A stretch of DNA of 64,000 nt from Deltaproteobacteria bacterium. GTDB taxonomy: Bacteria > Myxococcota_A > Polyangia > Nannocystales > Nannocystaceae. The stretch lies in assembly GCA_016709225.1 (NCBI GenBank), contig JADJEE010000012.1, positions 2,179,630-2,243,629 of the forward strand, in the 5' to 3' direction. This document shows, piece after piece, positions 7,819 through 64,000 of this stretch; position 1 is the first letter of the stretch; the number at the start of each line of letters is the position of its first letter. The notes under the pieces were generated by a model that did not search any database, was not told where the DNA came from, and saw only the letters and a program-made list of their open reading frames with translations. Made by a program: the position numbers and the translations under genes.

Positions 7819-8685
7819 TCAAGGACGCGCGGTGGGATCGAGCACGCAGCGGAACCCGATCACGACGTGGCGCAGCGTAGGCGCGACCAAGCGCCGCGAC
7901 GACGCGCGCGCGCGCCACGATGGGTCGCTCCATGCGGCGCCCTTCACGACCGCATGGCCGCGCTCGAAGCTCGCCGTCCACTCGGCGGCGTTGCCCGCGA
8001 GATCCTGCACACCGTGCGGGCCCGCGGTCGCTGGCCGCGCTCCGACCGGCTGCAAGTCACCCGCACCGCCCTCGCGGGTGTTGACCAGCGACGCGACGAA
8101 GCGGTCGCCCCACGGATACACGCGGGCATCGTCGCCACGGGCCGCTCGCTCCCACTGCGCCTCGGTCGGCAGCGAGCCGAAGCCGCGATGCTGCTCGCCC
8201 CACCACTCGCAGTAGGCCGCGGCCTCGGGTTGGCTCACCAACACGGCCGGTGCGTGCTCGCGCTCGCGACGAGGACGGCCCTGCACCCACGTGAACGTGC
8301 GCGGGTCGCCGCCCGGCAGCTCGTCGTCGAGCGCCTGCGTACGCGCCCACGTCTGCCGGTCGACCCATGGCTCCGCGGCACCGGTCGCGTAGACGTAGCG
8401 GGCGTACTCCTGCTGTGTCACCGGGTGCACCATCATGTGATAGGTGCCGATGCGCGCACGATGCCGTGCGAGCTCGCGTCGCACCGAGGTCGCGGCCGCC
8501 CGCGCATCGCCGCCGAGCTTCACGGCGTCGTCGATCGCCGCCGTGCGCTCGTCGAGCGAGGCTCCCATCGCGAACCATCCGCCCGCGATCGTGACGGTCT
8601 CGCTGGTGTCCACGCCGGCGTGGACGCAACCGCCGAGCGCCAGTGCGAGCAACCAGCCTGAGGGCGCCTGGATCGCGGTTGGCAT
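7819..8685 (-). CDS. Formylglycine-generating enzyme (SUMF1/FGE-sulfatase domain) family lipoprotein
   Basis: Signal/lipobox LALALGGC. Conserved FGE-domain blocks (MVHPVTQQEYARYV…, AYCEWWGE…LPTEAQWERAARG, …RVYPWGD…, GVQDLAGNAAEWT, RGAAWS). Confidence 0.75.
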   Translation of the reverse strand: MPTAIQAPSGWLLALALGGCVHAGVDTSETVTIAGGWFAMGASLDERTAAIDDAVKLGGDARAAATSVRRELARHRARIGTYHMMVHPVTQQEYARYVYATGAAEPWVDRQTWARTQALDDELPGGDPRTFTWVQGRPRREREHAPAVLVSQPEAAAYCEWWGEQHRGFGSLPTEAQWERAARGDDARVYPWGDRFVASLVNTREGGAGDLQPVGARPATAGPHGVQDLAGNAAEWTASFERGHAVVKGAAWSDPSWRARASSRRLVAPTLRHVVIGFRCVLDPTARP

Positions 8686-8806
8686 CGTCTCGCGTCATCG
8701 TCCGCGCGGGCGAGGTGCTGCAGGTCGGGTGCGCGGCGGCGATGGCCCCAAAGTTGGGCCCCACGTGGATCGCGGCGGCCCGTCCTGATACGACTGTGCC
8801 CAGGCG

Positions 8807-9193
8807 ATGACGACTCCGTTCTACTGCGTGTTGGTGGCGTGGGTGTTGATCTACCTGCCGAAGGTCGGCACCAGCATCGGCATGGCGCGGCAGCCCGGCG
8901 GCTACGACAACAAGCATCCTCGGGCCCAGCAAGCGCAACTGAGCGGGTGGCCGGCGCGCGCCCACGCGGCCCACCTCAACTCGTTCGAGACCTTCCCTGC
9001 CTTCGCCGCGGCGGTGATCGTCGCCCACCTCGCGGGCGCCGACCCCAGACGCGCGTCCCTGCTCTCGCTCACCTTCGTGATCACGCGCGCGCTGTACTTC
9101 GTCGCGTATGTTGCGAACGTCGACAAGCTGCGATCCACGCTCTGGGGGATCGGGATCCTCGCGACGTTCGGGCTGTTCGTGATCGGGGTCTGA
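8807..9193 (+). CDS. MAPEG family membrane protein
   Basis: 128 aa with three or four TM helices and a FETFPAFAAAVIVAHL-type core typical of MAPEG/MGST-like proteins. Confidence 0.65.
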   Translation: MTTPFYCVLVAWVLIYLPKVGTSIGMARQPGGYDNKHPRAQQAQLSGWPARAHAAHLNSFETFPAFAAAVIVAHLAGADPRRASLLSLTFVITRALYFVAYVANVDKLRSTLWGIGILATFGLFVIGV

Positions 9194-9227
9194 TCGCCGC
9201 GCGCCGAGGTGGACGTACTGCGCGCGG

Positions 9228-9728
9228 CTAGAACTCGATGCGCCAGGCGATCGCGAAGCCGCGCCCACGCGAGTAGGCACGAAGGCTGTGGCGCTGCCGC
9301 AGCCGACCGTCGCGCCAGATCCCGAGCACCGGCAGGCCGGCGGCGGCCACCGAGCCGAGGGCCGTGAGCGCCGAGGCGCCCGCACCCGGTCGCTGCAGCA
9401 ACGTATCGCCGCGCATCTGCGCGAGGTCCAACACCAGCTGCTCGGCTCGCTCGCGGGCATCGGTCGGCTGCGTGTTGATCGAGTCACCCGCCATGAGCCA
9501 TCGCGCCCACGTCAGCTCGCGGCCCAGGCGATTCTCCTGTCCGAGCCACGGCCGCAGCGTGCCAGGGGTCGCCGCGGCATCGGTGCGGAGCAACACCGCG
9601 CCGTCGGACGGCGGCTCGCCCTCGTCGGCGTGGGCCGGACGCCCGAGCATCGACGCCAGCGCGCAGCCGAGCCCGAGGGCCGCCGCGCGGTGGAGCCGAA
9701 TCCCGGCCATGGGACGAGCGTGCGTCAC
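9228..9728 (-). CDS. Hypothetical secreted protein
   Basis: N-terminal signal-like segment AALGLGCALASMLGRPAHA. No domain recognised. Located downstream of the ECF sigma gene. Confidence 0.35.
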   Translation of the reverse strand: MTHARPMAGIRLHRAAALGLGCALASMLGRPAHADEGEPPSDGAVLLRTDAAATPGTLRPWLGQENRLGRELTWARWLMAGDSINTQPTDARERAEQLVLDLAQMRGDTLLQRPGAGASALTALGSVAAAGLPVLGIWRDGRLRQRHSLRAYSRGRGFAIAWRIEF

Positions 9729-9904
9729 GTCATATCAAGCTAACCGCAGCCGCACCCGCTTGGGAAGCCCGTCGATGACGCGACCGGCCGGTCGAGCGGC
9801 GGCGCGGGCGGCCAACCCACACCGAGGGGTCGCCCCTTTGGTGCTCGGCCGGATGGCGGCTCACACAATCGGCAGCGGCGGCCTCGCCGGCGCGCGATCC
9901 AGCA

Positions 9905-10532
9905 CTACGCGGGCGAGCCGTCGTCGCGGCCGAAGTCTCGCTGGAGCGCAGCCGCCCAACGCTCCAGGTCGTCGACCGTGCTGCGAATCAGCTGATCGGA
10001 GACATGCATGCCCTCGATCCGGTCGCGCAGCATCTGTCGCGCGCGGAACAGGCGGCTCTTCACCGTGCCCGGCTGAACCCCGAGCACGGTCGCGATGTCG
10101 GCCACGCCCATGCCCTCCCAGTAGTGCAGCTCGACGCAGATCTGGAAGTCGATCGGAATGCTGCGCAGGCCCTTGAGCAGCAGCTTCTTCTCCTCGTGCA
10201 GCGCCCGCAACTGCGACGGCGTGCCCATGAGGTCCTCGACCGAGAACTCGAGGAAGTCCTCGAGCTTCCCGTGGGTGCGCTTGCTGCGGTACTGGTGGAA
10301 CAGCAGGTGCCGCGCGATGCCCAGCAGGTACGCGCGGAAGGTGCCGTCCTTGATGCGATCGAAGCCCTCGAGGCTGGCCAGGAAGGTCCGTTGCGTGAGG
10401 TCGTCGACGTCGTTGTCGATCTTGCTGCGGAAGAAGCGATAGACGCTGCTGAAGTGGCGATCGATGAGCTCGTTGCCCGCCGCCTTGTCGCCGTCCTTCC
10501 AGCGCTTCAGCAGTTCGAAGTCGTCACTCAAG
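9905..10532 (-). CDS. RNA polymerase ECF-type sigma-70 factor
   Basis: Sigma-70 region 2 (…DLTQRTFLASLEGF…ARHLLFHQYR) and region 4 HTH (GMGVADIATVLGVQPGTVKSRLFRAR). The track ORF reaches 10624, but a TTG at 10532 (MSDDFELLKRW) aligns with the N-terminus of the paralogous sigma at 39376 (MAEITDFELLGQW). Confidence 0.8.
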
Positions 10533-10570
10533 GTGAGTCCTAGCGTACGCCGTCGCGTCGCGCCGCACCA

Positions 10571-10630
10571 CCCCAGCGCGCGCGCAGAGGCCAGCGCGCG
10601 CGCACGAGGCCAGGGCTCGCGCACGAGGCC
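10571..10630. repeat. Direct GC-rich repeats (gcgcgc-a-c/g-gaggccag units) in the leader region of the ECF sigma gene
   Basis: + strand cgcgcgcagaggccagcgcgcgcgcacgaggccagggctcgcgcacgaggccgcc: two or three imperfect ~17-bp direct repeats lying between the M50 peptidase stop and the sigma start. Confidence 0.4.
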
Positions 10631-17343: not shown

Positions 17344-18543
17344 CTACGGAGCCCCGAGCGCCCGGATCGCCGCGGTGACGCCGACGTCCTTCTCGCCCAC
17401 GACCGGCATGTCTCCGGTCAACGCGACCGCGACGTCGGGTGTCACGCCGCTGCCGTCGACCAGGCGATCGTCGGGCGAGTAGTAGCGCGCGATCGTGAAG
17501 GTCGCGACCGAGCCGTCGGGCAGGCCCATCACCTCCTGCACGGTGCCCTTGCCATAGCTGCGCTCACCGACGACGCGCGCACGCCCGCGATCTTGCAGCG
17601 CGGCCGCCAACAGCTCCGATGCCGACGCGCTGTGGCGGTCCTGCAGCACGACGATCGGCGTGGCGAGATCGGTGCCAGGGGCGTGTGCGGACTCCTCGCG
17701 CAGGATTCGCCCGCCACGTCCGCGGGTCCGCATCAACACCCCGTCGGCGACGAAGGTATCGGCGATGACCAGCGCCTCACCGACCTCGCCGCCGGGGTTG
17801 CCGCGCAGGTCGATCACGATGCCGGCGAGGTCCTTGCCGAGCGCGTGGCGTCGGGCCTCGATCGCGCGCTTGAACGCGTCGCCGCTCTCGGCCCCGAAGC
17901 GCCGCAGGACCACGTGCACGTAGCTGCGCCCAGCCTCGTCGCGCACGACCGCGGTCTCGAGCATCTTCGTGCTGGGGCGCGCCAGCACCAACTCGACCGC
18001 ACGGGGGCCGTTGCCGTCGACGGGCTGGACCAACAACGCGACCTCGTCGCCGATCGCACCGACCAGCAGGAGCTCGGCCTCGCGCTGCGACGCGAGCGCG
18101 TCGACGGACTTGCCGGCGATCTCGACCACCGCATCGCCCGGGCGTAGGCCCTCGCGCGCCGCCGGGGAGTCGGGCGCCACCGCCAGCACCTCGAGGCGAC
18201 GCGCTCGCGAAGCAGCTTCGGTGCGCATCGCGACTGCAAGCCCGGTCTCACCCGAGTGCTTGTGGCGGCGCAGCGCCTTGCGATCGGCGGCGCTCAGGAA
18301 GTGACTGTGGGGATCGAGCTCGCCCAACATCGCCGAAAGCCCCGCGGACAACAACGCGGCCTCGTCGACCGGCTCGTAGTAGCGGGAGAACACCGCCTCC
18401 ACCGCCTGGTCGAAGCCCGCACGATCCAGCCGCGGCGCCGATGCAGCCCGCAGACCGGGCTCCAGCGCCGCAGTTGCGACCAGGGTGCACACCACACCGA
18501 GCGCAAACCCCACGGCGCCGATTCGACGCTTCATCCCAACCAT
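17344..18543 (-). CDS. S41 family C-terminal processing peptidase with PDZ domain
   Basis: IVIDLRGNPGG block, PDZ (…GLRPGDAVVEIAGKSV…), catalytic region (…DRHSASASELLAAALQD…GERSYGKGTVQ). Signal peptide MVGMKRRIGAVGFALGVVCTLVATAAL. Second S41 paralogue in the window. Confidence 0.8.
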   Translation of the reverse strand: MVGMKRRIGAVGFALGVVCTLVATAALEPGLRAASAPRLDRAGFDQAVEAVFSRYYEPVDEAALLSAGLSAMLGELDPHSHFLSAADRKALRRHKHSGETGLAVAMRTEAASRARRLEVLAVAPDSPAAREGLRPGDAVVEIAGKSVDALASQREAELLLVGAIGDEVALLVQPVDGNGPRAVELVLARPSTKMLETAVVRDEAGRSYVHVVLRRFGAESGDAFKRAIEARRHALGKDLAGIVIDLRGNPGGEVGEALVIADTFVADGVLMRTRGRGGRILREESAHAPGTDLATPIVVLQDRHSASASELLAAALQDRGRARVVGERSYGKGTVQEVMGLPDGSVATFTIARYYSPDDRLVDGSGVTPDVAVALTGDMPVVGEKDVGVTAAIRALGAP

Positions 18544-18578
18544 CGTGGCGTATCCTCCGCGCGAGGTCAAAGCACCCC

Positions 18579-20519
18579 ATGACACCCATCGAGAACATCC
18601 GCTCCGATCGTTCCATCGTCGCGCGTCCCCGCGGGCTCGCTCGCTTCGCGCCGCTCATGATGGTCGCGTCGCTGGCGATCGCGTGCAAGAAGGACGACGC
18701 CAAGCCCGCGGATGCCAAGGGCACCGAGAGCAAGGACGGCAAGGTCGCCGACGCCGACACCAAGGACGGCAAGGCACCCGACGCCAAGACGCCCGACGCC
18801 AAGGCGCCAACGCCGACGGGCGACGCGCCGGTGGTCGCGCCTTCGCTCACCCGCGGCGACGTGCTCGCGCACGTCATGTTCGCCAACCCGTCGGTGCTGC
18901 TCGGCGAGATCAAGACCCAGATCGTGCCCGAGTCGGCCGCGCAGTTCGTCGACGAGTCGTTCCTGCGCACGATGGGCGGCGGTGCGCTGGGCTCACGCAG
19001 CGCACTCGCGACCAACCTCGACCTCGCCAAGCCGATGGGCTGCGCGCTGGTCGACAGCACCACCACCAAGGCGCCGCTGGCCTGCGTGATCGGCTACACC
19101 GGTGGCTCGAAGCAGCTCGTCACCGACCTCGGTGAAGAGGGCAAGCAGACCGACGCGGGCTCGCACATCGCGAAGTACTCGGTGAACGGCCAGGACCTCT
19201 TCATCGACGACCTCGGCGGCGAGGTCATCGTCAGCAACGCCGACGAGCTGTTCGGCAAGGCCCGGAGCTACCTCGCGGACTCCATCATCGGGCGCGCCAG
19301 CGCCATGAAGACCGACGTCGAGATCGTCGCCTACCCGGCCGACCTCATGCGTCGCTACGACGCCGAGCTCCGTCCGGTGTTCGACGCCATGGCCAAGCCC
19401 CCGACGCTGCCGACCGGCGGCAGCGCGGGCGAGAAGTTCGCCGGCGCCATGGCCGAGTACGGCATGAAGTCGAACGAGCGCACGCTCAAGATGATGCAGG
19501 AGATGCAGCAGTTCTCGATGGCGATGTCGGTCGACGGCGCCGGCCTCGAGCTGACCTACGCGCTGCAGCCCACGCCCGGCACCGAGCTCGCGAAGCAGTA
19601 CGAGATCACCTCCGCCGGCCCGGTCGATGCCGCGTTCGTGTCGTCGCTGCCGCGCTCGAGCTGGGGCGTGATGGGCTTCAACGCGCACATGTCCGAGGCG
19701 CTCGACACCGGCCCCGTGAAGGAGCTCCGCAGCGCGCTCGTGAAGGGCTATGCCGAGGCACTCGGCAAGGATGCCGCGCAGACCGAGGCCGCACTCGTCG
19801 AGTTCGCCAACGAGGCCCGCGCGACCTACTCCGGTCACTCCGCACTGGCACTCATGCAGGAGCCCGGTAGCGTCGGTGCGCTCGCGGCCGTGTTCGGCCT
19901 CAAGGACGGCGTCAACGCCCGCGAGGCCTGGAAGACCTGGTCGGGTGGATTCACCGTCGAGTCGTTGCTCGGCGCCGACGCGGCCAAGAAGGTCACGTGG
20001 AGCTTCCAGTTCGACGCCGCGAAGGTCGGCGAGGTCGCCGTCGATCGCTGGGTCATCGAGCCCACCGACGAGGTGAAGGCCGAGATGCGCAAGGACGGCG
20101 GCGCCAAGCTGGCCGAGTGGGAGACCAAGCTCGGCGGCCTCAAGCTCGTCGTCAACCGCGTCGAGCGCGATGGCAAGGTCGCGTGGATCATCGGCTCGGC
20201 CGCCGACGAGGCCTCGACCAAGGCGGTCGTGGACGCGATGGCGGGCAGCGCCTCGCTGGCCGGTGATCCGGGCCTCGACAGCGCGCTCGCACGCACGCCG
20301 GGCGCGTCGGCCATCATGGCCCTCAACGTCAAGGGCATGCTCGCGTGGATCGCCACGCTCGCGCCACCCGAGGAGGCCGCGAAGATCCCGACGGGCATCG
20401 GCAGCGATCTGAACGACGTGGTCATCACGACCACGTACTCGCCGTCGGGTCCGCAGGTCGGCGAGATCGCGTTCTCGCAGAAGCTGGTCGACGGCGTCCG
20501 CGCGCTGGCGAACAAGTAG
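18579..20519 (+). CDS. Hypothetical lipoprotein (646 aa) with K/D/A-rich linker
   Basis: Start MTPIENIRSD…LMMVASLAIACKKDD (lipobox LAIAC), then a KDGKAPDAKTPDAKAPTP low-complexity linker and a large globular domain. Divergent from the S41 peptidase. Confidence 0.6.
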   Translation: MTPIENIRSDRSIVARPRGLARFAPLMMVASLAIACKKDDAKPADAKGTESKDGKVADADTKDGKAPDAKTPDAKAPTPTGDAPVVAPSLTRGDVLAHVMFANPSVLLGEIKTQIVPESAAQFVDESFLRTMGGGALGSRSALATNLDLAKPMGCALVDSTTTKAPLACVIGYTGGSKQLVTDLGEEGKQTDAGSHIAKYSVNGQDLFIDDLGGEVIVSNADELFGKARSYLADSIIGRASAMKTDVEIVAYPADLMRRYDAELRPVFDAMAKPPTLPTGGSAGEKFAGAMAEYGMKSNERTLKMMQEMQQFSMAMSVDGAGLELTYALQPTPGTELAKQYEITSAGPVDAAFVSSLPRSSWGVMGFNAHMSEALDTGPVKELRSALVKGYAEALGKDAAQTEAALVEFANEARATYSGHSALALMQEPGSVGALAAVFGLKDGVNAREAWKTWSGGFTVESLLGADAAKKVTWSFQFDAAKVGEVAVDRWVIEPTDEVKAEMRKDGGAKLAEWETKLGGLKLVVNRVERDGKVAWIIGSAADEASTKAVVDAMAGSASLAGDPGLDSALARTPGASAIMALNVKGMLAWIATLAPPEEAAKIPTGIGSDLNDVVITTTYSPSGPQVGEIAFSQKLVDGVRALANK

Positions 20520-47718: not shown

Positions 47719-49749
47719 TCACGGCCGCTGTTCGGCCGCGAGCACCTCGGCGAGCTGCCGCTCGGCCTTGCCGTCGGGCATCGACATCACGCCGATCGAC
47801 ACCTCCGGCGGCTCCGGCAGCGGGGACATGGGGTCGACGTCGCCACCACCCTCGGAGCACATGCAGTCGAACCCACCTGCCCTGGCGAGTAGCGCGGTCT
47901 CCGGGCACATCGCATCGACACGCGCGAGATCCCCGAGCGGCGGGCCGCCCCACGTGTTGGTGCTCGAGCACCCACAGTCGTCGTCCATGAACTGCCCGAG
48001 CGGACACGTCACGGGGGTCTTGCACTCGCTCCCGGTCGGTGCACCGCCGCCGAACTCCCCGCACATCTCGTCGGCGGCCGTCGAGTCGTGGTCGTCGGGC
48101 ACGGGATGCGACTTGCGCGGATCCTCGCCGGGCTTGCGCTTGAACAACGCATCGAAGAACGCTCCGCGGTCGGCAAACCCATCCTTGGTCAGCACGCCCA
48201 TGCTGAGGAGCTCCTGACACGCGGGGTTCTTCGGATCGAAGCCCCCGGGCTCGAGGCCGCCCGCCGCGTCACCGCCGTCGGCTGCACCCGTGGCCTCACC
48301 TTCGTCACCCTCGCCACCGGTATCGCCACCACTGGCGCTCGTCGTGGTGCTGCTGCTCGACGTCGTGGTGCTGCTGCTCGTGGTGCTGCTGCTCGACGTC
48401 GTGGTGCTGCTGCTCGACGTCGTGGTGCTGCTGCTCGACGTGCTGCTGGTCGTTCCGCTGCTGCCGGGGCAACCGCTGACGCACACGGGGTCGCCCGCCG
48501 CGTTGTTCTCACACTTTGCGCCCGGCTGATAGCACCCCGCCTCCCGCGCACGATCGATGTAGTCCATCCCGGTCGTCACCAGCTCGACCGCTTCGATCCA
48601 TTTCTTCACCGCGTAGACGATCCCCTGTTGACCAGGGTTGGTGATCCAGCCCGACCCCGGGATCCAGCCCGTCGGATTGAGGGCCGGGCCGTCGGCGAGC
48701 GGATTTCCCTCATCCGTCGCAAGGCACTCCTGCATGGACGTCAGCAAGCCCATGCCGTCGGCGATCTCCTGCGCCATGCTCGCGGAGCAATCGTCTTCGG
48801 TGAATCCATCGAGCGGGCTGGTGCTACCCGACATCGCACCTCCGCTGGCGCGATTGTCACAATAGTCGCTCAGCCACGAGATCTCGTCTTCGCTGAAGCC
48901 ATAGCTTCCCTGGAGTTCGTCTTGCAGCGGCGTCGCCCCGCCGGGCATCTTGCCGCCGCTCTCGGCGGCGAGCTGCTCGCACATTTCCTCGATCGTTCCC
49001 CAGCCGCCGGGCGTACCCGTGGCCGCACAGCTTCCGCCGGCAACGATGGAGGCCGGCGCAAGCACACCGCTCTTGTACGTCGGCCCCGCCAGGTCGCAGA
49101 GCGCGTCATTGACGAGCACGTCGCCCATGATCGTCGCAAGATCACTGCGTGCGATCACGTCGGCGTCGAGGCCGATCATCTGCTCCACCACCACGCGCGC
49201 AGCGGCTCCTCGAATCGCTCGCTCGGCGAGGTCGTTCCGGTACGCGACCCGGACGTGGACGCTGGGCGCAGGCTCGTCGGCGAACCACACGACATCACGC
49301 ATGCGATTGGCGTTGGCCGCCGACACCGCGACCACGGCGGGATCACGCGACCATGCGGTGCAATCCTGGTAGCTGAGCAGCAGACCTTCGAGCCCATCGG
49401 CGCCCGCCTCTGCGACGTACTCGAGGAGGTCGTCTTGACGCACGGCGCACTCATCGGGCGTCAGGTAGCGCAGCACTGCGAGTTCTGCACGCGTCACACG
49501 GGCGTACGCCTTGCCGTCGCGAATCGCGTACGAGTGTTGAATTGCGGAGAACATCTCGCCTCCCGCGTAGCCCGTGCCACTGACCCACTCGGAATGGCGA
49601 GAGCGGAACTCCGCGAGCGCCGAGTTCGCGTTCACCGGATTCTCGGCAGCGTTGGCCTGCGGCACGAAGTACGTGGAATCCGGTAGCTGCCCGACGGCGG
49701 CGACCAGCAATGGCGTGGCGATGCATGCGGTGATGAATGTGCGCTTCAT
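47719..49749 (-). CDS. Secreted multi-domain protein with poly-Ser/Thr linker and Cys-rich C-terminal region
   Basis: Signal peptide MKRTFITACIATPLLVAAVG. N-terminal globular domain, then (S4T3)n linker, Gly/Asp/Glu-rich acidic stretch, and a C-rich C-terminus (…CKTPVTCPLGQFMDDDCGCSS…CMCSEGG). Confidence 0.6.
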   Translation of the reverse strand: MKRTFITACIATPLLVAAVGQLPDSTYFVPQANAAENPVNANSALAEFRSRHSEWVSGTGYAGGEMFSAIQHSYAIRDGKAYARVTRAELAVLRYLTPDECAVRQDDLLEYVAEAGADGLEGLLLSYQDCTAWSRDPAVVAVSAANANRMRDVVWFADEPAPSVHVRVAYRNDLAERAIRGAAARVVVEQMIGLDADVIARSDLATIMGDVLVNDALCDLAGPTYKSGVLAPASIVAGGSCAATGTPGGWGTIEEMCEQLAAESGGKMPGGATPLQDELQGSYGFSEDEISWLSDYCDNRASGGAMSGSTSPLDGFTEDDCSASMAQEIADGMGLLTSMQECLATDEGNPLADGPALNPTGWIPGSGWITNPGQQGIVYAVKKWIEAVELVTTGMDYIDRAREAGCYQPGAKCENNAAGDPVCVSGCPGSSGTTSSTSSSSTTTSSSSTTTSSSSTTSSSTTTSSSSTTTSASGGDTGGEGDEGEATGAADGGDAAGGLEPGGFDPKNPACQELLSMGVLTKDGFADRGAFFDALFKRKPGEDPRKSHPVPDDHDSTAADEMCGEFGGGAPTGSECKTPVTCPLGQFMDDDCGCSSTNTWGGPPLGDLARVDAMCPETALLARAGGFDCMCSEGGGDVDPMSPLPEPPEVSIGVMSMPDGKAERQLAEVLAAEQRP
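48340..48450. repeat. Tandem 21-bp coding repeats (cgtcgtggtgctgctgctcga x ~5) encoding the poly-Ser/Thr linker
   Basis: Near-perfect copies at 48340, 48361, 48397 and 48418, plus a 15-bp partial copy. They translate on the - strand to SSSTTTS repeats. Confidence 0.6.
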
Positions 49750-49890
49750 GGCAGCGCCCGATTCATCAAGTTGCGTGCCAACCCGAACGCAACGCCGTCA
49801 TCGTGGATTCATGTGAGGCGCTCGCACGACGCGTCGTGAGCCGCACAGCGGGACAGGTGCCGGTGTCCCCGGTGTCACCAGGGCGACGCC

Positions 49891-61986: not shown

Positions 61987-62317
61987 GGGGTCCTTCCGTT
62001 GGTGCGGGTGACGATCGCGTGGCCGCGGCCACGGCGAGTCTACACGCCCGTGGCGGCGCGCCACGACCACGCGAGAACGCTGACGCGGCGGAGTTATCGC
62101 GCGCGCGCGGTCCGGCAAGTGGATCGCGGCGGCGCGCGCATCGGCTCGATGGAGATGTACGGCCACACGCACTCGAGCCTTCTGCGAGGGGCCGAGATCG
62201 TCGCCTGAAGCGCGCCTGAGCGTCGATCTCGTTGCCCCGCCCACTTCAGGACGCCGGACACCCCGGAAATCGACCGTGGTCATGCGTCCGTCTGGCCGCG
62301 ACCGGCAACTAGCCTGC

Positions 62318-64000
62318 GTGCGCCGACGTCACGCATTCTCCACCCTGTTGACCCTGGTCGCCGCCGTGAGCGGTTGCGACGTCTACGAGACGCGACCGCA
62401 GGAACCGCCGCAGGGTGACCGTGAGGGCCTGGGCGCGCGGTACGTGACCGCATTCGGCGACACCGTGTCGTTCGAGCTCGATGCCCTCGAGGTGCCGGGC
62501 GACAACGCGGGTGTGCGCGGCTTCGTGGCGATCACCCCGGCGACGCGCTCGCTGATCGCGGCGGTCGTCGTACGCGACGCCGGTGGTCAGGCGTGGCCGC
62601 TCGATGAGCTCCTCGGTGCCGCGCGCATCGACCCCGTACTGCGGCTGCGTTTCGACAACGGCACAGTCATCGACATCCCTGGACGCTCGAGTCTGACCGA
62701 GCTCGCCTTCGACCTCAGCGAGGTGGCACTGCCGCGGGGCACCAACCCCGAGGTCAGCGTGCTGCTCGGCGGTGACAGCATCGGTGGCGGTCACGCGGTT
62801 CACGTCGCGCGCATGGGCGACGTCGACCTCGACGGCGCGGTCGACTCGTCGGACCTCGTGACCCTGTTCGCAGCTGGTCGCTACGAGACCGGCGAAGCCG
62901 CGAGCTACTCCGAGGGCGACTTCAATGCGGACGGCGTGTTCGACTCGAGCGATCTCGTGGCGCTCTTCGGCGGCGGCGACTATCAGGCCCCCGGGGTCGC
63001 GACCCCGAGCGATGACGAGCTGGATGAGGCGCTGATCGTGCGCGACTATCCGCCGTACTGGCTCGCATCGGGGGAGGTCGCCGATGCGCTGTTCGAACGC
63101 CAGGCCGAGGTCGACGATGCACTCGCGTCGGAGAACCTGACCACGCCCCAGCGCGACGCGTTGAACGAGCAGCGCGAGGCACTCACGCGACAGATCGAGG
63201 CGGTCCGCGGTGCCAGCTCGCGACCGGACCTCAACTACAACGACATCGACCTGCTCGGCTACGAAGGATGTGCGGTGACCTGTTGGCTATCGGCGCGTTC
63301 GATTGGCGCAACGCTCTGGGAGGTGGAACGCACCGAATCGGGCACATTCTGCGAACAGTGGCACGACGACGACTGCGCCGGGGAGCTCGCAGTCGACGGG
63401 CGTTTCCCGATGAGCTGTGATCCGGTCGCGGGGCACGGCGGTCACGCGGACGCGCCTGGCATCGAGGGCTGGCTCGACGGCGCGCACTATCAGTACCAGG
63501 CATGCGGTCCGCACGACGTGCAACCACCGCCGCTGGGCTCGGGCAGCTCGGCCGCCACTGCGGAATGCGAGCAGCACGTCGCGTTGACCATGCACTGCGA
63601 GAACTTCGGCAAGGCCTGTGGGCAGACCGGCGCAGGCGCGGCGGCCTGCGACTATCGAGAATCGCGCGAGGCCGACGTCCACATTGGTGCGGCGACGCGA
63701 CGGGCGCAGGGCTCGGTACTCGCGCCGCGGGCCGAGATCAAGGGCAAGGTCCAGTTCTCGTCGACGCTCGAGAGCGAGTTCGGCGTCATGATCACGCCCG
63801 CGACGCAATCATTGACGGGTGTCGGGATCGCGAACTCGGATGACGTGCCCACGGCCAACGACCCCTGCGAGGAACTCGAGGGCGACGCAGTCGGGACCAT
63901 CGGTGTCGAATGCTACATCGAGCAGGAGTTCCTCGCGGCCAAGAAGCCCAAGGTGGCGTGCAAGCTCTTCTTGCGCGGCGAGCTCAAGGCGACGATGTCG
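62318..64000 (+). CDS. Dockerin-containing lipoprotein, 3'-truncated at window edge (not in supplied ORF track)
   Basis: GTG at 62318 gives MRRRHAFSTLLTLVAAVSGC (lipobox AVSGC). The frame stays open for 561 codons to the window end. Paired dockerin-type Ca-binding repeats DVDLDGAVDSSDLVTLFAAG … DFNADGVFDSSDLVALFGGG. Cys-rich C-terminal part. Confidence 0.6.
   Translation, partial: MRRRHAFSTLLTLVAAVSGCDVYETRPQEPPQGDREGLGARYVTAFGDTVSFELDALEVPGDNAGVRGFVAITPATRSLIAAVVVRDAGGQAWPLDELLGAARIDPVLRLRFDNGTVIDIPGRSSLTELAFDLSEVALPRGTNPEVSVLLGGDSIGGGHAVHVARMGDVDLDGAVDSSDLVTLFAAGRYETGEAASYSEGDFNADGVFDSSDLVALFGGGDYQAPGVATPSDDELDEALIVRDYPPYWLASGEVADALFERQAEVDDALASENLTTPQRDALNEQREALTRQIEAVRGASSRPDLNYNDIDLLGYEGCAVTCWLSARSIGATLWEVERTESGTFCEQWHDDDCAGELAVDGRFPMSCDPVAGHGGHADAPGIEGWLDGAHYQYQACGPHDVQPPPLGSGSSAATAECEQHVALTMHCENFGKACGQTGAGAAACDYRESREADVHIGAATRRAQGSVLAPRAEIKGKVQFSSTLESEFGVMITPATQSLTGVGIANSDDVPTANDPCEELEGDAVGTIGVECYIEQEFLAAKKPKVACKLFLRGELKATMS

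Follow-up and report, generated by a model that had tools for sequence, protein, structure and literature searches.

Type I dockerins (PF00404), such as those of CelS (2mte, 1daq) and of the glycoside hydrolase family 9 enzyme (4fl4) of C. thermocellum and the R. flavefaciens dockerin 5lxv_B, are duplicated loop-helix pairs of about 60 residues, an arrangement that recurs in the module described here. Unlike a true EF-hand, a dockerin-type F-hand has no entering helix, and type I dockerins carry a Ser-Thr recognition pair at loop positions 10-11. Cellulosomal hosts are anaerobic Firmicutes, and the dockerin of a secreted cellulosomal enzyme usually sits at one terminus. Dockerin-like modules outside cellulosomes were reportedly found by Peer et al. 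in 2009 to be widespread, in three domains of life. The reference list of PMC2930009 gives the Peer et al. 2009 work on dockerin-like modules as its reference 34. In freshwater Planctomycetes, cohesin and dockerin proteins without a link to cellulose are on record and 'planctosome' assemblies were proposed (PMC6461901), a likewise non-cellulosomal setting for dockerin-type modules in Gram-negative envelope proteins. Here we analyze a lipoprotein gene with a dockerin-like module, located at the 3' edge of a 64,000-nucleotide stretch of DNA (the window) from the Nannocystaceae assembly GCA_016709225.1 (contig JADJEE010000012.1). The original prediction for this gene, made from the DNA letters alone, had regarded dockerins outside clostridia as uncommon, a view at odds with the documented spread of non-cellulosomal dockerin-like modules and with the planctomycete proteins.

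The gene is real and previously annotated, and encodes a predicted myxobacterial (Nannocystaceae-type) cell-surface lipoprotein. Judged from its sequence, the product is probably an exported, lipid-anchored envelope protein that carries a calcium-binding dockerin-like module near the anchor and a Cys-rich functional head, in a non-cellulosomal setting.

A conserved gene for a predicted lipoprotein at the window edge

Translation of the window DNA confirmed the open frame that had been noticed as missing from the list of open reading frames (ORFs): frame +2 is stop-free over 62318-64000 (561 codons) and runs off the window edge. The nearest upstream stop is at 62081, leaving the frame open from 62084, and the other five frames of 62318-64000 contain 2-17 stops each, the antisense frame just 2. 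Start candidates are GTG 62276 (the call of NCBI), ATG 62282, and GTG 62318, the last being the start chosen in the original prediction and that of the orthologue P0003. NCBI holds a 100% identical 781-aa protein, P0001 (MBK6922508.1 and others), under the name 'MAG: dockerin type I repeat-containing protein [Deltaproteobacteria bacterium]', where MAG denotes a metagenome-assembled genome. The window carries codons 1-575 of P0001, and the last 206 codons and the stop fall outside. A 12-kb contig from this organism (L001) carries the gene at 8266-10611, equivalent to window 62276-64621; these coordinates place the stop, which had been expected downstream, 621 nt past the window end.

The GC content of the frame at the three codon positions is 0.71/0.50/0.84 and varies little throughout its length, a signature to be expected of coding DNA when the genome has 70% GC. 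Full-length orthologues of P0001 are P0002 (86% identity), P0003 (80%, from a Nannocystaceae MAG), and P0004 (73%). Comparison with the three orthologous genes by the NG86 method gave ratios of non-synonymous to synonymous substitution rates (dN/dS) of 0.20, 0.22, and 0.28, and the gene is therefore a real one under purifying selection. The ratio was lowest in the first Cys-rich subdomain (0.11-0.16), followed by the dockerin-like module (0.14-0.19), and highest in the linker (0.26-0.44), a lack of constraint equalled only by the mid segment 471-600 (0.22-0.48).

Long open frames arise often in DNA of 70% GC, and with an antisense frame that has only two stops one might take the frame for a chance product of GC-rich DNA or a pseudogene fragment, and its 'dockerin' for a low-complexity Asp/Gly artefact. 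This explanation is already refuted. Besides the contrast between third and second codon positions and the low dN/dS, the frame is kept by every full-length orthologue at 73-86% identity, the same architecture is found in two relatives at ~30% identity, and the module matches 20 or more independent proteins, with E-values down to 5e-11, in a database of 5.8 billion proteins.

The predicted lipoprotein signal peptide was likewise borne out. The PROSITE-type lipobox rule asks for an n-region with positive charge as well as an h-region, and for [LVI..][ASTVI..][GAS]-C among the first 35 residues, and LLTLVAAVSGC fits it. All three candidate starts lead to the same predicted lipidated cysteine, Cys34 (codon 62375-62377), which becomes residue 34, 32, or 20 according to the start used, with an R among the first 7 residues each time. 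Every one of the six full-length relatives, including those at only ~30% identity, has a Cys following the hydrophobic stretch, and the equivalent lipobox Cys was found in P0002, P0003, P0004, P0028, and P0030. A short Pro/Glu-rich tether connects the lipobox to the N-terminal domain.

The dockerin-like module

The two dockerin-type segments quoted in the original prediction are exact, with DVDLDGAVDSSDLVTLF starting at 62819 and DFNADGVFDSSDLVALF at 62918, and they form a duplicated pair. Over 24 residues each, GDVDLDGAVDSSDLVTLFAAGRYE and GDFNADGVFDSSDLVALFGGGDYQ are identical at 14/24 positions with an offset of 33 residues. Both 12-residue loops have D or N at positions 1, 3, 5, 9, and 12 and Gly at position 6, and these D/N positions are kept across 28 related modules (alignment A6). 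No dockerin-type loop motif beyond these two was found in the six frames of the window.

Dockerin_1 was the sole Pfam match at E<=1 and was obtained in 4/4 orthologues (E 9e-4 to 5e-4). The hit anticipated by the original prediction therefore exists, while its score (window part, 19.8 bits; full-length P0001, 20.3 bits) lies below the Pfam gathering cut-off of 22.9. The Pfam EF-hand models gave no match to the lipoprotein. In searches of PDB sequences, the family profile matched the R. flavefaciens dockerin 5lxv_B at E 8.5e-4, and a module profile built from the 28 modules of A6 matched 4fl4_A (1.6e-5), 2mte_A (CelS, 8.5e-5), 1daq_A (8.9e-5), and 5lxv_B (1.6e-4). Troponin C came after the dockerins in the A6 search, at E 3e-3; canonical EF-hand pairs of this kind have the paired calcium-binding loop-helix motif in common with the module but match it more weakly than dockerins do. 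An AlphaFold2 model of the full-length protein reached a predicted local distance difference test score (pLDDT) of only 25-31 over the module. As dockerins rank first among solved structures and Dockerin_1 stays below its cut-off, the module can be assigned to the dockerin-type F-hand pairs at the superfamily level. The pair had been called canonical; the ranking of solved structures agrees with its dockerin character, and the troponin C match narrows the description to dockerin-like. By its sequence, the module appears to be a divergent dockerin-like subtype, not a certified Dockerin_1 member.

The module differs from type I dockerins in several respects. It is internal, following a lipid anchor and a domain of no known family, and each helix is followed by a characteristic G-x-Y-E extension. 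Neither a partner domain typical of carbohydrate-active enzymes (CAZymes) nor a cohesin was seen in the protein, among the L001 gene calls, or in the ten largest of the other window ORFs. The myxobacterial host would be aerobic, in contrast to the cellulosomal hosts.

Planctomycete relatives of the module

The closest relatives of the module are neither clostridial nor myxobacterial dockerins but planctomycete (Pirellulaceae/Planctomycetales) surface proteins, at 45-59% identity and E-values down to 5e-11. An hmmsearch with the module seed recovered 22 planctomycete-type modules (E 1e-19 to 1e-26), and identity within alignment A6 is 43-56%. The common consensus is GDaNlDGvFDSSDLVavFxaGxYE...GDWNGDGxFDSSDLVaAFxxGgYE, and the lipoprotein module conforms to the pattern GDxNxDGxFDSSDLVxxFxxGxYE ... 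GDWxGDGxFxSSDLVxAF. A scan of one genome for each of 185,579 species found at least 36 loci. Among the matches listed, 34 were from Planctomycetes and shared the module only, and the other 2 of the 36 were full-length orthologues in Nannocystaceae MAGs. These two were the only other myxobacterial loci among the matches listed, which does not support the earlier suggestion that such dockerins recur in myxobacteria.

The planctomycete proteins are likewise exported, with the module proximal to the anchor. Their module is C-terminal, usually after a second, more canonical dockerin-like pair and before a PEP-CTERM sorting signal, whereas in the lipoprotein it comes after a lipid anchor at the N-terminus; the domains on either side bear no relation to those of the planctomycete proteins. 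PEP-CTERM is present in the planctomycete proteins P0005, P0009, and P0025, and was not found by Pfam scan in P0001, which ends ...GTCITPESV.

A fixed C-terminal cassette was observed in planctomycete proteins at L033 4785-5591, L035 9020-10432, and L023 1-5577. It consists of a canonical dockerin-like pair, a GDxNxDGxFDSxDxVxxFxxGxYE-type pair, and then a PEP-CTERM-like tail (L033, L035), is joined to very different N-terminal regions, and occurs in several copies per genome.

Domains flanking the module

No match to the N-terminal domain was found in Pfam, PADLOC, PDB sequences, or NCBIfam (the last searched with the 561 window-encoded residues), and it is strand-rich in the low-confidence AlphaFold2 model only. 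A relationship of this domain to DUF7901, considered via P0019, was rejected: P0001 has no DUF7901 match at E<=1, and it is the dockerin part that accounts for the BLAST alignment. Planctomycete matches extending into residues 122-180 were also set aside, as they fall on those proteins' own first dockerin-like pair.

The predicted Cys-rich C-terminal region is present, with 20 Cys in residues 317-781, of which 14 are invariant across the six full-length relatives; the part encoded in the window has 13 Cys after the lipobox Cys. The residues invariant in the six full-length sequences include W348, W362-H-D-x-D-C367, W399-x-D-G-x-x-Y-Q406, E442, R464, and K563. In the fragment P0029, M replaces the W of the W-H-D-D-D-C motif.

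For this domain, nothing credible was found in Pfam (E<=10), PDB sequences (E<=10), or PADLOC (E<=1), apart from scattered single-member chance Pfam matches. NCBIfam, searched with the 561 window-encoded residues, gave no match, and self-comparison revealed no internal repeat. A likeness of residues ~334-389 to the glutaredoxin-like XCC2852 (1ttz/1xpv, E 0.1) was judged to be due to chance and disappeared with a deeper profile. When 1.84 billion cluster representatives were searched exhaustively by HMMER with the C-terminal profile, 6 proteins were obtained: the P0002 orthologue cluster, the fragments P0027, P0029, and P0031, and the full-length distant relatives P0028 (741 aa, E 4e-46) and P0030 (652 aa, E 3.5e-7). 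The latter two are ~30% identical to P0001 and retain the lipobox, the N-terminal domain, the dockerin-like module, and the Cys-rich domain. A word-indexed search with a 9-sequence profile found 4 orthologues and one fragment, and a metagenome scan found one fragment. Overall, the N-terminal and Cys-rich domains are present in about 8 clusters among ~15 billion proteins. AlphaFold2 models of the full protein with 4 orthologues (pLDDT 30.6) and of the C-terminal 468 residues with 6 relatives (pLDDT 30.4) were both unusable; in these low-confidence models (pLDDT ~30), the C-terminal domain is strand-rich. The Cys-rich domain family is not described in any of the resources searched, and constitutes an orphan-domain observation, not a new mechanism.

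Proposed function and alternatives

The signal with its lipobox, the calcium-loop pattern, and an even number of conserved cysteines (20) are read directly from the sequence. In the function we propose, a Sec-type signal peptide would export the protein, lipidation would occur at Cys34, and the mature protein would reside in the oxidising periplasm or on the cell surface. There, the cysteines of the C-terminal domain could form up to ten disulfides, which probably hold this large domain together. The dockerin-like module would bind two Ca2+ ions and, near the membrane anchor, may serve as a calcium-dependent attachment to a protein or surface polymer, or as a stabilising unit. An anchor-proximal role is supported by the planctomycete modules, which are likewise placed just before the PEP-CTERM anchor. 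The Cys-rich domain would be the working head, and its invariant His/Asp/Trp/Tyr motifs point to a site for a ligand, metal, or substrate, putatively formed by W-H-D-x-D-C and W-x-D-G-x-x-Y-Q.

Several points weigh against this proposal. The Dockerin_1 score is under Pfam's curated cut-off. The likeness to solved dockerins seems largely limited to the calcium loops, at weak E-values, and a generic EF-hand protein, troponin C, scores only about 100-fold worse. Models at pLDDT ~30 leave the β-rich, disulfide-bonded head and its binding site as features inferred from sequence. No partner protein was found for the module, and the gene context varies and so gives no functional clue.

The protein could instead be a subunit of a cellulosome-like or 'planctosome'-like assembly, its module plugging into a scaffoldin cohesin encoded elsewhere and displaying the Cys-rich domain for catalysis or substrate binding. 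In favor of this, the module shows all the sequence hallmarks of paired dockerin repeats, with Ser-Ser occupying loop positions 10-11, its best solved relatives are dockerins, and Planctomycetes have been proposed to possess cohesin/dockerin assemblies of a non-cellulosomal kind (PMC6461901). However, the 'planctosome' model rests on cohesin and peptidase domains together, and Pfam scans of the protein and the ten largest other window ORFs found neither. No glycoside-hydrolase domain, carbohydrate-binding module (CBM), or cohesin occurs in the protein, its called neighbours on L001, or those ten ORFs, no other dockerin motif pair occurs within 64 kb, and the module is below the Dockerin_1 threshold. 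The protein itself has no CAZyme, peptidase, or CBM domain by Pfam, and it has its own lipid anchor. Such a membrane anchor is unusual for a dockerin-borne subunit. A cellulosome-type assembly is unlikely. Another alternative is a secreted or surface factor for predation or antagonism, in which the disulfide-rich domain would act as a toxin, a lytic enzyme, or a pore-former and the calcium module would contribute stability only. The group to which the hosts of the lipoprotein belong is predatory, and the narrow, patchy distribution, the rearrangement-prone locus with variable neighbours, the trypsin-like protease gene adjacent to the orthologue in one locus, and invariant His/Asp/Glu/Arg/Lys residues compatible with a catalytic site are in line with such a role. 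Against it, Pfam, PADLOC, and PDB sequences revealed no likeness to a toxin, lysin, or pore-former, no immunity-like gene stands consistently alongside, and dN/dS values of 0.2-0.28 give no sign of diversifying selection. An effector role in predation is possible, with nothing specific in support, and we consider it improbable. We would give similarly little credence to a more far-reaching version, according to which the N-terminal and Cys-rich C-terminal domains constitute an undescribed extracellular family restricted to a few Nannocystaceae-like lineages, with W-H-D-x-D-C and W-x-D-G-x-x-Y-Q as a metal-dependent catalytic or toxin site of a new kind of calcium-dependent, surface-docked predation enzyme or effector. 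The lipid-anchored envelope protein with a calcium-binding module and a Cys-rich head is the function we favour.

Table 1. Positions in the window of the lipoprotein gene, its parts, and an adjoining gene relic (aa, amino acids)
Feature	Position	Strand	Remarks
Lipoprotein coding sequence (781 aa, P0001)	62276..64000	+	Stop at the equivalent of 64619-64621
Signal peptide with lipobox LLTLVAAVSGC	62276..62377	+	PROSITE PS51257-type pattern matches from all three starts
N-terminal domain, residues ~56-178 (~120 residues)	62441..62809	+	No known family; conserved in P0028, P0030
Dockerin-like F-hand pair, residues 181-236	62816..62983	+	Two putative calcium loops, each then helix LV(T/A)LF
Calcium loop 1, DVDLDGAVDSSD	62819-62854	+	D-V-D-L-D-G-A-V-D-S-S-D
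Calcium loop 2, DFNADGVFDSSD	62918-62953	+	D-F-N-A-D-G-V-F-D-S-S-D
Variable acidic linker, residues 256-316	63041..63223	+	Helical in low-confidence model; missing in P0030
Cys-rich C-terminal domain, window part	63224..64000	+	Residues 317-781 in full (~465 aa)
Motif W-H-D-D-D-C, residues 362-367	63359..63376	+	W, H, D364, D366, C invariant in six full-length relatives
73-bp FAD-monooxygenase gene relic	62079..62151	+	89% identical to intact downstream FAD gene; intergenic

Gene neighborhood and other features of the window

Upstream of the lipoprotein gene are a 289-bp intergenic region and a divergent DUF1801 gene, and downstream is a gene for a monooxygenase dependent on flavin adenine dinucleotide (FAD). 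None of the window's neighbor genes lies beside the orthologues in L002 or L003, and no conserved neighborhood is common to all of seven related loci. Flavin monooxygenases and Ser/Thr kinases recur near the gene, the monooxygenases belonging to different families. Ser/Thr kinases are very abundant in myxobacterial genomes. The distant relatives P0028 and P0030 are flanked by other genes again. With its varying neighbors, the gene therefore looks monocistronic and outside any conserved system.

Some genes were observed repeatedly near members of the family. A conserved protein of 763-815 aa that falls in no Pfam family and contains the recurring motif G-N-(L/F)-E-L-V is encoded upstream of the orthologues in divergent orientation (L002 6599-9046, L003 7616-9892, and L040 1-2289, all on the minus strand) and is not in the window. 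Directly on the 3' side of the orthologue is a small protein of ~110 aa with an EF-hand pair and a hydrophobic N-terminal segment (L003 12349-12687, L040 4755-5084, L002 13463-13858), which is absent from the window; in L002, a trypsin-like gene is inserted between the orthologue and this gene. The small EF-hand neighbor, presumably membrane-anchored, may represent a calcium-related functional link in the L002/L003/L040 lineage. Small Cys-rich putative lipoproteins with N-termini ...LLAAC and ...LALGC, for which no Pfam family is on record, are encoded near the gene at L039 4724-5299 (+, 191 aa) and L043 1205-1741 (+, 178 aa), respectively.

The monooxygenase gene relic (Table 1) is a trace of a local rearrangement and does not belong to the encoded lipoprotein. 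Intact FAD-monooxygenase and TetR genes lie downstream of the lipoprotein gene (L001 10626-12103), and in L039 (1-2153) the order is DUF1801, FAD-monooxygenase, TetR, lipoprotein; L043 1-3458 was also compared. Three further assemblies of the window organism have contigs that all break off within the repeated TetR/FAD segment, and where they stop, L039 goes on into the upstream region of the lipoprotein gene. The arrangement suggests a local duplication or rearrangement at the lipoprotein locus, possibly with a second copy downstream.

Elsewhere in the window, an 889-aa frame at 30741-33410 (-) matches MVP_shoulder (E 2.4e-25, 89 bits) and Vault_3 (E 1.3e-10). Judged from these matches to domains of the eukaryotic major vault protein, it is a vault-protein-like gene in a bacterial genome. 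Two further frames, at 17874-20519 (+, 881 aa) and 47719-49797 (-, 692 aa), have coding-type third-position GC content and no Pfam match at E<=1e-3.

Implications

The gene was already annotated in public MAGs as encoding a dockerin-repeat protein, and carries little weight for general biology. That dockerin-like modules are widespread outside cellulosomes is established, although for most of them no partner is known, and the protein is an addition to this known, loosely defined group of non-cellulosomal dockerin-like proteins. The disulfide-rich domain, with no detectable relatives beyond a handful of sequences, is a candidate new domain family for structural genomics. From the sequences compared, the module appears to be a distinct subtype common to Planctomycetes and a few myxobacteria, always close to a membrane or surface anchor, and this anchor-proximal placement hints at general calcium-dependent surface attachment, rather than cellulosome assembly.

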